From the sequence record OP745617: 64,000 nt of DNA; one strand, written 5' to 3'. The translations under genes and the position numbers were made by a program. The stretch comes from Escherichia phage F13. The notes below the pieces were generated by a model that was not told the DNA's origin, did not search any database, and saw nothing but the letters and a program-made list of their open reading frames with translations. Below, in pieces: positions 53,946-57,258 of the stretch (positions within the stretch are counted from its first letter, which is position 1; each line of letters starts with the position of its first letter).

Positions 53946-54941
53946 TTATTTATTAGCAATATAAGCAAATTTTTGATAGTTATTTGCTTTGATGAGTTTT
54001 TCAACTTCAACAAGGTCATGAGCAACGTCATCAAGCAAAATGTTTCGCCAAGTAGCAAAGCGACCGACACTAAATACGTTCAAATCCATGGTCAGCTGTA
54101 GGAGTAGAGCGTGTCGCAAGTCTTTCGGAATGTCGACAATCTTGCCATACTTCTGGTCGACCTTTTCAACTTCTTCGAGATCGATGTCACTCCATGATAG
54201 GCCAAAGGCTGTCAATACTTCGTCAACTTCTGCACGCAACTTAATGTCACGGTAACGAGTAATGCCGCCAGCGGCTTCAACTGCGGCTTCACTTACGCTA
54301 ACCAAAGGAATTGTTTCAATGATCAGTGTGTCACCAGTGATTGATGCGCGGTAAGTTCTGACGGAGTAGTCAGGAAAGTAAATGGTTTGATACAGTGCAC
54401 ACTTGCGCTTAATCTTAAAGCGGTAAACACGAATGTTTGCCTTATCGAATGAGAAATCAATCTTTTGATCAATCCCAGCAAGCTTCATCATGACTGGCAG
54501 CGGCGACGTGTTGATGATTGGCGTCTCGCTATAGCCGCAAAGAGTATCAACAGGAGTATTAAAGAATATGCGGTCACCCAGTTTGTCGACAAGCTGATCA
54601 TAAAAGTCATCAGGCGCAATATAACGCGTTGCAGTTTTAAGCTTCATGATTGAGCGGCTACCGAATTGATTAGTGACCTTCATGGAATACATATTGGCAA
54701 GGTTGATTGGGCAATGGTCGTGGTAGTAGTTGCCGCGAAAATACACAGCCTTGTCAACTGTCACGGCCTTAAAAGGGATTCCGGTAATACGGCTTACTTC
54801 TTCGCCGCGAAATCGTAGCAAAGCCTTGTGCTGTGGCGCTCGTTCCCCTGCTTCGTACACAATGGAGTTCGGGAAGTGACACGCGGTAATAAGTCCTGCC
54901 AAACCGCCGCCGATAATCATTACAGGTTGTTTCATGTTCAT
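53946..54941 (-). CDS. FAD/NAD(P)-binding Rossmann-fold oxidoreductase
   Basis: N-terminal dinucleotide-binding motif VMIIGGGLAGLITA; 331 aa. Confidence 0.55.
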   Translation of the reverse strand: MNMKQPVMIIGGGLAGLITACHFPNSIVYEAGERAPQHKALLRFRGEEVSRITGIPFKAVTVDKAVYFRGNYYHDHCPINLANMYSMKVTNQFGSRSIMKLKTATRYIAPDDFYDQLVDKLGDRIFFNTPVDTLCGYSETPIINTSPLPVMMKLAGIDQKIDFSFDKANIRVYRFKIKRKCALYQTIYFPDYSVRTYRASITGDTLIIETIPLVSVSEAAVEAAGGITRYRDIKLRAEVDEVLTAFGLSWSDIDLEEVEKVDQKYGKIVDIPKDLRHALLLQLTMDLNVFSVGRFATWRNILLDDVAHDLVEVEKLIKANNYQKFAYIANK

Positions 54942-55074
54942 TTGTCCTTTGTGGGTGATATGAGAAGTATAATAGCTAAATTATTTTACAGCAACAAGTC
55001 ATTTCTATTTAGTACAGACGAAAAAGACCCACAACAAGTGTGGGTCAATTACCGCTATATAACCGTCCTACAGG

Positions 55075-55920
55075 TTATTCCGCTTGATCACCGTCTTCGG
55101 CATTGTCGTTGGATTCAACATCGACAAACTCGATGTGGCCCATCTCTTCCAGCTTGCTCAGGTAGGAGCGAACGGAAGCGCCAAACAGTTGATCTTTAAC
55201 TTTTTCGCCCAGCTCATCGATAGACTGCGCCACGCCAACTTCGCCTTCTTTGATCGCCGCCAGAACGCGTCCACGGGTGGAATGCTCTTGCGGCTGGCTC
55301 AGGCCATTGCCGGTGTAGATGAAGTGAGTGGCTTTTGCACGACGCTGACCGTTTGCCTTTTTAGCAGCCTTGCGCTCTGCGATGGCTTTGCGACGTTCTT
55401 CAGCTTCTTTCTTACGCTGTTCTTTCTGCTGTTCTGCAGCTTCTTTAGCCGCAATCTTAGCAGCTTCACGCTCTGCCTTGCGTTTCGCTTTAGCTTCTTC
55501 TTTGGCCTTCTCTTTTTCGGCCTTCGCTGCAGCACGGGCTTGATCACGCTCTGCTTTCTTGGCCGCAGCCTGCTCAGCTTTCAGGCGCTTGGCTTCTTCT
55601 TTAGCCTTTGCCTTTTCGATTTCTTTTGCTGCTTTAGCGGCTTCACGCTCTGCTTTCTTAGCAGCAGCCTTTTCTGCACGCTCTTTAGCTTTCTTAGCTG
55701 CTTCTTCAGCACGCTTCTGCGCCTTCTCATCAGCAGCCTGCTTGCGTTTCAGCGCAGCTTCTTCACGCTTGGCTTGTTTTTCCTGCTCACGCTTCTGGCG
55801 CTTCTCTTCGGCTTCTTTCTTTTTAGCCAGGCGTTTTTCTTCAGCCACGCGACGACGTTCTGCTGCGGCTGCTTGTTTTTCTTCTTTAGATAATACTTTG
55901 ATTGCTTCGGCCATATTCAC
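55075..55920 (-). CDS. Lys/Ala/Glu-rich low-complexity protein with globular C-terminal domain (histone H1/TolA-like)
   Basis: About 180 aa of KAE repeats (…EEKRQKREQEKQAKREEAALKRKQAADEKAQKRAEEAAKKAKERAEK…) then a ~90-aa non-repetitive domain. Confidence 0.5.
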   Translation of the reverse strand: MNMAEAIKVLSKEEKQAAAAERRRVAEEKRLAKKKEAEEKRQKREQEKQAKREEAALKRKQAADEKAQKRAEEAAKKAKERAEKAAAKKAEREAAKAAKEIEKAKAKEEAKRLKAEQAAAKKAERDQARAAAKAEKEKAKEEAKAKRKAEREAAKIAAKEAAEQQKEQRKKEAEERRKAIAERKAAKKANGQRRAKATHFIYTGNGLSQPQEHSTRGRVLAAIKEGEVGVAQSIDELGEKVKDQLFGASVRSYLSKLEEMGHIEFVDVESNDNAEDGDQAE

Positions 55921-55983
55921 AGTCCTTAAATAAATTAGTTTATTTTATATTCCCCGTTTGGGATAACTTAATTATGCCTTCAG

Positions 55984-56018
55984 TTGCCGCCAGTAGCAAC
56001 TAAAAACTATGGCGGCAA
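55984..56018 (-). other. Hairpin TTGCCGCCA-(17 nt)-TGGCGGCAA between the Dda-like and KAE-rich genes
   Basis: 9-bp GC-rich inverted repeat in the intergenic region. Confidence 0.35.
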
Positions 56019-56073: not shown

Positions 56074-57258
56074 TTAACGCGCTTTCAAATCACGGTACAC
56101 GGTCAGATTCTTCTTAGCACGGGTGATAGCGGTGTACATCATCTTGGAGTACGGAACGCCGCGCAAGATTTCTTCCAGCACGCACACATTATCCCACTCG
56201 CTGCCTTGCGATTTGTGCACCGTGATGACATAGCCATAGTCCATCCCGCCAACAGCGCGTTGCGCTTCTTTGCGCACTTCCTGATCAGTAGAGAAGGAAA
56301 GAGGATTGATCTTCACCTTTATATCTTTACCATCAGTTAATGAACGCAAGTTGACATACATTATTTCATTCGACTCATCTTCATCCCTTTCAAAGTCCGG
56401 CACTGGCTCATAGCTAATAACAATCCCTTGCTCGCCATTACAGAATCCTGGACCGTGTTGGTTGAATGTGCAAATAACCTTCTCGCCGATTCCTGGCATT
56501 GGCGTTATACGTCCGCTCACTTGCCGTAATAATGAATTCCATTTATCTTTGGTGCTATTATAGGAGCAAATAATTTGATCATCTTCGCCCATGAATTTCT
56601 TCAATGCAGTAACGCGCGGCGATTCTGCCAATACTTTGACGTCATCGTATTCACGCGGGGGAAGGCGGTTGCCTTGGCGCACGAAGAAGGAGGCGCGGAT
56701 TATATTGGACTCTTTCCCTTGCCGCATGATTTCGGTTAACAGCACGTCAACGGCATCTTCAGTAAAGTAGGCGGCGGCTTTTACCGGAGGGACTTGTCCA
56801 ATGTCGCCTAATGCCAGGACAGGGATGCGGTGATCAAGAAGGCGCTCTGTGTCCCACTCGCCAACCATCGACGCTTCATCGAGTACAACAAGGTGCGGCC
56901 TTTCATCCAGCTTTGACTTTCTCGAAAAGATTGGCTCATTGTCGTCATTTACGCCGCGCACGTTATAGATGAACTGGTGAAGGGTCTTAGCGCCACGACA
57001 GCCTTTTTGCTTTAATCGGCTTGCAGCCTTTCCGGTCGGCGCAATATAGATAGCTCCATACTCACCGACACAACGGCGCACAATCTCGCGAGCAATAGAG
57101 GTTTTACCAGTCCCTGCATAGCCAGCGATGAAAAACACGCGCTTCGTCGTTTTACCGTCCTGCAATCGCTTGTACCATGCAACGGCTTTCTCGATGGCGT
57201 CGATTTGTTGCGCGTTAAACTGAATCACTGGCTCATCATTAAATTCTGGAATGTTCAT
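56074..57258 (-). CDS. Dda/RecD-like SF1 DNA helicase
   Basis: Walker A GYAGTGKTS, Walker B VVLDEASMV, C-terminal VITVHKSQGSEWDNV. Confidence 0.8.
   Translation of the reverse strand: MNIPEFNDEPVIQFNAQQIDAIEKAVAWYKRLQDGKTTKRVFFIAGYAGTGKTSIAREIVRRCVGEYGAIYIAPTGKAASRLKQKGCRGAKTLHQFIYNVRGVNDDNEPIFSRKSKLDERPHLVVLDEASMVGEWDTERLLDHRIPVLALGDIGQVPPVKAAAYFTEDAVDVLLTEIMRQGKESNIIRASFFVRQGNRLPPREYDDVKVLAESPRVTALKKFMGEDDQIICSYNSTKDKWNSLLRQVSGRITPMPGIGEKVICTFNQHGPGFCNGEQGIVISYEPVPDFERDEDESNEIMYVNLRSLTDGKDIKVKINPLSFSTDQEVRKEAQRAVGGMDYGYVITVHKSQGSEWDNVCVLEEILRGVPYSKMMYTAITRAKKNLTVYRDLKAR

Follow-up and report, generated by a model that had tools for sequence, protein, structure and literature searches.

A predicted long charged helix with a predicted winged-helix head, encoded by Escherichia phage F13 and other PB1-like phages

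The window analyzed here, a stretch of 64,000 nt, comes from Escherichia phage F13 (record OP745617). On its minus strand, 153 nt downstream of a gene for a Dda-like helicase (56074-57258; Pfam AAA_30/UvrD_C_2) and thus beside it, as a first-pass annotation had noted, lies a gene for a 279-residue protein rich in lysine, alanine, and glutamate. The 4-kb stretch around this gene is 100% identical to the corresponding part of Escherichia phage vB_EcoM_SP13 and 94 to 98% identical to that of 27 other Wifcevirus records. Position 54000 of the window corresponds to position 51932 of OP352608.1, so that the window starts about 2 kb before that record does; deposited Wifcevirus genomes come in two size classes, ~68 kb and ~72 kb, a difference that terminal repeats or the opening of the assemblies may explain. 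The features of the locus are the following.

55075..55914, minus strand: coding sequence of 279 aa plus stop, a member of phrog_4765 (ORF list and the 840-nt annotations of relatives)
55360..55887, minus strand: uninterrupted predicted alpha-helix, residues 10-185 (176 residues, ~26 nm; AlphaFold2, block pLDDT 74-97)
55327..55359, minus strand: basic arm KKANGQRRAKA, residues 186-196, the start of the motif G-x-R-R-x-K-A-T-H, in which T-H are residues 197-198
55123..55326, minus strand: winged-helix-like domain, residues 197-264 (beta1, H1, beta2, H2, H3, beta3)
55078..55122, minus strand: acidic low-confidence tail DVESNDNAEDGDQAE, residues 265-279 (pLDDT <50)
55923..55927, minus strand: Shine-Dalgarno sequence AAGGA, invariant in eight phages and annotated as a ribosome-binding site in phage Mansfield
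55971..55999, minus strand: sigma-70-like promoter candidate, TTGCTA, 17-nt spacer, and CATAAT (9 of 12 consensus matches in a scan; a pattern match only)
55026..55046, minus strand: intrinsic terminator with an 8-bp GC-rich stem and a T-run, 29 nt past the stop codon (terminator scan)
55084..55893, plus strand: antisense ORF of 269 aa, rich in F, L, S, and C, non-coding and explained by the GCN/AAR/GAR codons of the gene

The open reading frame spans 55075..55920 on the minus strand and includes a GTG at 55920, two codons upstream of the ATG at 55914. Since AAGGA is found 8 nt before the ATG but only 2 nt from the GTG, translation almost certainly starts at the ATG, as judged from this spacing, and a coding sequence of 840 nt and 279 aa is annotated in all eight related-phage records inspected. 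The long antisense ORF had been taken as spurious, and comparison of eight orthologues bears this out: read in the minus-strand frame, 57 of the 61 variable sites are third codon positions, and in phage Mansfield codon 30 of the antisense frame is a stop. Neither an Rfam nor a tRNA scan revealed an RNA gene in the window.

According to a scan of the window, the gene forms a monocistronic unit with its promoter candidate, Shine-Dalgarno sequence, and terminator. The hexamers of the promoter candidate are invariant in the eight phages, as is the stem of the terminator, for which the records of Mansfield, LBL3, and XcP1 carry an annotation at the corresponding position, and the 166-nt region upstream of the gene has five variable positions among these phages. 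Between the helicase stop codon and the gene's promoter we observed a perfect 9-bp inverted repeat, TTGCCGCCA-N17-TGGCGGCAA (55984-55992 and 56010-56018), which overlaps the -35/spacer part of the promoter candidate. Its RNA fold has an energy of -25.5 kcal/mol (z -2.9), and among the eight Wifcevirus phages one stem pair changes from T-A to C-G in two genomes, with a U.G-compatible intermediate in three others. Possible roles of the repeat are those of an operator or of a hairpin for read-through or attenuation.

The protein is under strong purifying selection, comparable to that acting on the helicase. All eight Wifcevirus orthologues have 279 aa and no indels, so that the freely varying repeat length which would have counted against a function is not seen, and only 4 of the 279 residues vary among them, two of these in the 190-residue helical part. 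Variable protein columns amount to 1.4% for this gene, compared to 1.8% for the helicase and 4.1 and 6.4% for two other neighbors. Third-position variability among the eight phages is 0.20, compared to 0.22 to 0.39 for the neighboring genes; arginine is encoded exclusively (100%) by CGT or CGC, and the gene favors GCT, GAA, and AAA, in the manner of highly expressed Escherichia coli genes. The low third-position variability and the arginine codons would fit codon selection for high expression, or else restricted synonymous choices for lysine and glutamate.

The whole protein (residues 1-279) matched positions 14-271 of the 294 in the phrog_4765 profile with an E value of 1e-83, and its C-terminal 91 aa alone gave 1.5e-44. 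When the C-terminal 92 residues were used in tblastn, 356 phage records were found, of which about 293 were Pbunavirus, the other matches being Wifcevirus together with Serratia, Burkholderia, Xanthomonas, Pantoea, and Aeromonas phages. Word-indexed homologue searches returned three proteins for the C-terminal domain and eight for the full length, and an exhaustive HMMER search of 1.84 billion representatives returned only 27 clusters, in all of which the domain is C-terminal and stands behind an Ala/Lys/Glu-rich region. From these searches, the family appears confined to the Lindbergviridae or "PB1-like phages," which according to the ICTV comprise Wifcevirus, Pbunavirus, Bcepfunavirus, Myosmarvirus, Carpasinavirus, Tabernariusvirus, and Kylevirus (PMC12451628); the protein is present in at least six Lindbergviridae genera. 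Across genera the N-terminal region has a modal length of 166 to 190 residues. It is nearly neutral in most members (+4 to +12 over 130 to 260 residues), and Wifcevirus, with +25, is an outlier.

In the window protein, residues 1-190 consist of 30% A, 24% K, 20.5% E, 10.5% R, and 6% Q, with Asp plus Glu making up 21.6% and a net charge of +25; the pI of the entire protein is 9.7. The helix predicted for residues 10-185 by AlphaFold2, run on a 10-sequence alignment (mean pLDDT 82.5), contains neither Pro nor Gly, and the fraction of charged residues in it is 0.59. Pairs of opposite charge at i+3/i+4 are enriched (z +2.4), and pairs of like charge gave a z of -2.7. Lysine and arginine recur with a period of 3.67 to 3.70 residues (power 15.1, compared to a shuffle 95% limit of 6.4), and aspartate and glutamate lie about 180 degrees from them around the helix (mean phases of -62 degrees for K/R and +122 degrees for D/E). 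The charge phase is coherent over the whole helix, and alanine has no preferred face. The same 3.67-residue stripes are conserved in four other genera, namely, in the homologues of Pseudomonas phage 14-1, Burkholderia BcepF1, Xanthomonas XcP1, and Aeromonas Gekk3-15 (power 10.6 to 14.6; null 95% limit about 6). These opposite stripes with an 11/3 period are the most distinctive feature of the stalk, and no earlier description of them or of the protein architecture was found in the searchable literature. In several metagenomic relatives (P0007 to P0010, P0013, P0024, and L017 5001-5834), the N-terminal tip of the stalk carries a His-rich peptide, MSHGHHHH..D.GHTHG, which may be a metal-binding or partner-binding end; the stalk tips of the Wifcevirus and 14-1 proteins are unrelated to it.

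The first-pass annotation had described about 180 residues of KAE-rich repeats followed by a domain of about 90 aa. Composition and layout were confirmed (residues 1-190 and 191-279), and the gene does encode a genuine protein, with a long, charged, helical portion followed by a domain of its own at the C terminus, but the repeats were not. Tandem Repeats Finder reported a 15-nt unit present twice as the sole unit, and the direct repeats in the gene are degenerate (63 to 86% identical, at a spacing of 96 to 102 nt). Residue autocorrelation peaked at lags 8, 11, 15, 19, 26, 33, and 37 and was depleted at 14 and 21; since the peaks are multiples of ~3.67, the regularity is a helical periodicity of composition and not a repeated unit. 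Together with the invariant length, these results rule out tandem repeats and repeat-number variation. A heptad coiled coil, the other structure for which a check had been proposed, is ruled out by the periodicity analysis as well: at most two of eight a/d positions carry a large hydrophobic residue, leaving no hydrophobic seam, lags 14 and 21 are the depleted ones, and there is no 3.5-residue peak, the power at this period being 0.9 or less for the Ala, basic, acidic, and net-charge classes. The combined apolar class showed no peak over the shuffle null at any period tested.

Residues 191-279 have an ordinary composition with an acidic tail at the end. Without the arm, the C-terminal domain is acidic (pI 6.3), and the last 20 residues have a net charge of -8 here and a negative one in nearly all family members. 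AlphaFold2 placed strands and helices at E197-200, H213-222, E229-231, H232-238, H248-257, and E261-264, and modeling the last 99 residues on their own gave the same picture. With the H1-beta-H2-H3-beta topology found in these models, the domain is a predicted winged-helix fold. Foldseek against the PDB found no significant solved relative of the C-terminal domain (best E, 0.22), and matches in BFVD were family members only, including the "TolA protein" of BcepF1 and of Serratia MTx and the "putative structural protein" of tabernarius. By sequence, the full protein gave only a meaningless match in the PDB (E, 0.69), and neither Pfam nor NCBIfam yielded a family at an E of ≤0.01.

The R and R/K of the arm are invariant or nearly so, as alignments of 10 and of 27 members of the family show. 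Residues invariant in the 27 members are the second Arg of the arm, the Gln of P-Q, the Ser and Arg of S-x-R-G at the start of H1, a Gly, Arg249, and Lys254. Going by the hydrophobic pattern of the 27-member alignment, R249 and K254 point outward from helix 3, which reads VRSYLSKLEEMGH and would resemble a typical wHTH recognition helix, VRSYLSKLEE being the putative recognition helix in the model. The winged-helix head probably binds nucleic acid.

With such a head, the protein could bind promoters by way of its wHTH and act as a sequence-specific transcription regulator, either of middle or late phage genes or of its own. Apart from the fold and its recognition-helix-like H3, this role would be consistent with the second, non-sigma-70 promoter class of phage 14-1, which lacks an assigned activator (PMC10914365), and with the overlap between the 9-bp inverted repeat and the gene's own promoter in Wifcevirus. 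The repeat is, however, not conserved in Pbunavirus or Carpasinavirus, and across the genera compared no conserved operator-like inverted repeat was found upstream of the gene. Abundance and codon bias would also be atypical of a regulator, a stalk of 176 residues is without precedent among phage transcription factors, and the dimerization element typical of wHTH regulators was not seen. We consider a regulatory role quite improbable.

We compared the gene context in Wifcevirus, Pbunavirus, Carpasinavirus, Bcepfunavirus, an Aeromonas phage, and two metagenomic contigs. In these relatives the gene is always part of the replication/nucleotide-metabolism module, where it follows the Dda-like helicase and usually precedes genes for a UGM-like flavoprotein, ThyX, and PNK. 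Strict coupling to the helicase is ruled out by one metagenomic relative in which five ORFs lie in between. Coupling to the downstream UGM-like gene is ruled out too, as the latter is absent in BcepF1 and is found in Rhizobium and Vibrio phages that lack the present family. In the window, this directly downstream gene (53946-54941, minus strand) encodes a 331-aa phrog_4828 protein with no Pfam or NCBIfam match, which the annotators of Mansfield regarded as UDP-galactopyranose-mutase-like; it adjoins ThyX and PNK and occurs in 361 phage records, largely of the same lineage. The replication module also contains a 148-aa ORF (53434-53880, minus strand) with a hydrophobic, signal-peptide-like N terminus (MKRITGIALAATAILGTMY...) and with no match in Pfam, PHROG, or NCBIfam.

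Winged helices also serve as protein-binding modules, as in RPA32C, kleisin, and ScpB, and the protein could thus be a replisome or recombination adaptor in which the winged helix and the acidic tail tether the Dda-like helicase, a primase, or a polymerase, with the helix as spacer. The neighboring helicase gene would suit such a role, but the linkage is weak evidence because module order is conserved as a whole in the phage family, and the adjacency itself is not strict. Moreover, one would not usually expect an adaptor to be abundant, to show such codon bias, or to turn up in virion preparations, and the conserved basic arm and the invariant Arg and Lys of H3 fit contact with nucleic acid better than contact with protein. 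An adaptor is in our opinion unlikely.

The protein is expressed, a point on which the first-pass annotation had made its reading depend. In a mass spectrometry analysis of CsCl-purified vB_Eco4M-7, whose protein differs from the window protein by one residue, the "TolA protein" gp83 was identified with 7 peptides, 25.8% coverage, and a score of 1197.6, sixth of 33 proteins, and the protein was found in ECML-117 too (Necel et al., PMC7048862). Together with the codon bias, the gene's own promoter-like site, the strong Shine-Dalgarno sequence, and the terminator, this score suggests that the protein is abundant.

The same data would be consistent with a virion-internal protein that is packaged and injected and that protects or bridges DNA ends, counters host defenses, or condenses DNA in the head. 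Its homologue S1_069 was not among the 31 proteins of DNA-free ghost particles of Pbunavirus SCUT-S1 (PMC6521218), which would fit release together with the DNA. On the other hand, the CsCl preparation of vB_Eco4M-7 held clearly non-structural proteins, namely, the helicase and a glyoxalase-family protein (PMC7048862), and in the accessible parts of the cryo-EM papers on Pbunavirus phages E217 and Pa193 the homologue goes unmentioned (PMC10329688; PMC11456595). The gene, furthermore, belongs to the replication and not to the structural module and has a sigma-70-like promoter. LBL3, LMA2, JG024, and other PB1-like phages carry the annotation "putative structural protein," a label that reportedly stems from Ceyssens 2009. 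This annotation speaks for a virion protein, but the note in LBL3 also reads "cell wall associated hydrolase," a wording that suggests a low-complexity BLAST match behind the "structural" label. Virion association is thus uncertain, and a dedicated virion-internal function appears improbable on balance.

The gene itself is already in databases, as hypothetical or mislabeled; the labels in use are "hypothetical," "TolA," "structural protein," and "transcription initiation factor." "TolA protein" is the label in FEC19, ECML-117, vB_Eco4M-7, and Epa phages, and a likeness to TolA had also been proposed for the window protein. What the two share is a long, Ala/Lys/Glu-rich helical segment of similar length, domain II in E. 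coli TolA, and this compositional resemblance alone would speak for an envelope protein that spans the periplasm or mimics TolA, helping infection or lysis. In contrast to TolA, however, the window protein has no signal peptide or hydrophobic segment that could serve as membrane anchor: its maximal Kyte-Doolittle 19-residue mean is 0.61 (residue 217), compared to 2.45 (residue 14) in E. coli TolA. No match to TolA domain III or to any TolA profile was obtained in Pfam or NCBIfam at an E of ≤0.01, the best BLASTP hit to E. coli TolA under compositional adjustment had an E of 0.17, and the C-terminal domain is modeled as a winged helix and not as TolA domain III. TolA domain II, for its part, lacks the 3.67-residue charge stripes. 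Missing anchor, missing domain III, and the BLASTP value refute membership in the TolA family, the label is a compositional artifact, and we regard an envelope role as extremely improbable. For therapy and biocontrol directed at Pseudomonas aeruginosa and E. coli O157, Pbunavirus and Wifcevirus phages are among the most widely applied or suggested, and correcting this label matters for safety annotation.

Our preferred reading, to which we assign a probability of about 0.4, is an abundant, DNA-associated architectural protein specific to PB1-like phages, a "stalked winged helix." The head, with its basic arm (RRxKATH) and the outward-facing invariant Arg and Lys of H3, would bind nucleic acid, and the 176-residue N-terminal helix would be a rigid stalk with a fixed length of ~26 nm, whose opposite basic and acidic stripes would let stalks associate side by side or touch DNA or a partner; the basic surfaces may be modulated by the acidic tail. 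The protein would be produced on a large scale from its own promoter-terminator unit within the replication module, and part of it would copurify with virions and may be packaged in them. DNA binding, self-association, and biological role are what we infer here. The first-pass annotation had suggested that the repeat coats DNA or acts as a spacer or scaffold; spacer or scaffold and association with DNA remain the best readings, whereas DNA coating of the polycation type cannot be the conserved mechanism because the stalk is nearly neutral outside Wifcevirus. Knowing the role of this protein, be it in DNA organization, as a replisome accessory, or as injected cargo, would close one of the larger gaps in Lindbergviridae biology.

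Among known systems, a weak and non-significant similarity to the nucleoid-associated protein YejK/NdpA (NA37), which would favor the architectural reading, recurred across methods. It concerns the H1-beta-H2 segment and YejK residues 213 to 251: Pfam NA37 was matched by 3 of the 27 family members (best E, 0.0068), hmmsearch matched PDB entry 9be2 with an E of 0.38, and hhalign against the E. coli YejK alignment gave probabilities of 19 to 28% over 37 to 38 columns. Since the hhalign probability stayed at this level, we do not take kinship with YejK as established.

KfrA of IncP plasmids likewise combines a small DNA-binding head with a long charged helical tail and is regarded as a probable scaffold. 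Its head is N-terminal, whereas that of the window protein is C-terminal; KfrA_N of Pfam gave no match, and no sequence relationship to KfrA was detected.

The stalk has the sequence properties of ER/K single alpha-helices (SAHs), such as those of myosin VI/X and caldesmon: it is highly charged (0.59), has hardly any large hydrophobic residues and no heptad core or hydrophobic seam, is enriched in i/i+3-4 pairs of opposite charge, and is predicted to be a rigid spacer. It differs from them in its 30% Ala, in having opposite 11/3 stripes instead of the alternating E4/K4 blocks of SAHs, and, in Wifcevirus, in its net positive charge. A helix of fixed length with 11/3 stripes, unlike both classical SAHs and coiled coils, offers a clean natural model of long charged helices.

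Histone H1, to which the protein had been likened, provides the remaining comparison. Membership in the H1 family is ruled out, as the Linker_histone family of Pfam had no match in any of the 27 family members at an E of ≤1 and Foldseek aligned the domain to the globular domain of yeast H1 (Hho1p GII) with an E of only 2.9 and a probability of 0.15. The polycationic, acid-poor, disordered tail of H1 is also absent, the corresponding region having 21.6% Asp plus Glu, being predicted helical, and carrying +4 to +12 in most relatives. Compared to H1/H5, the extension is N-terminal, so that the order is reversed, contains 20% Glu, and forms one continuous predicted helix of mixed charge. A linker-histone-like DNA organizer that is packaged with the genome, self-associates through a charge zipper, and spaces or bridges duplexes in replication and in the capsid is, in our estimation, decidedly doubtful; if true, it would mean that tailed-phage DNA is not always packaged "naked" and that there is a new kind of viral chromatin protein. 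What stands of the comparison is the layout, and the analogy has become stronger because the C-terminal domain is predicted to be a winged helix, the fold class of the H1 globular domain. With H1/H5 and the bacterial H1-like Lys/Ala-rich proteins, the window protein, itself strongly basic, would thus share abundance and a long Lys/Ala-rich extension attached to a winged-helix globular domain.
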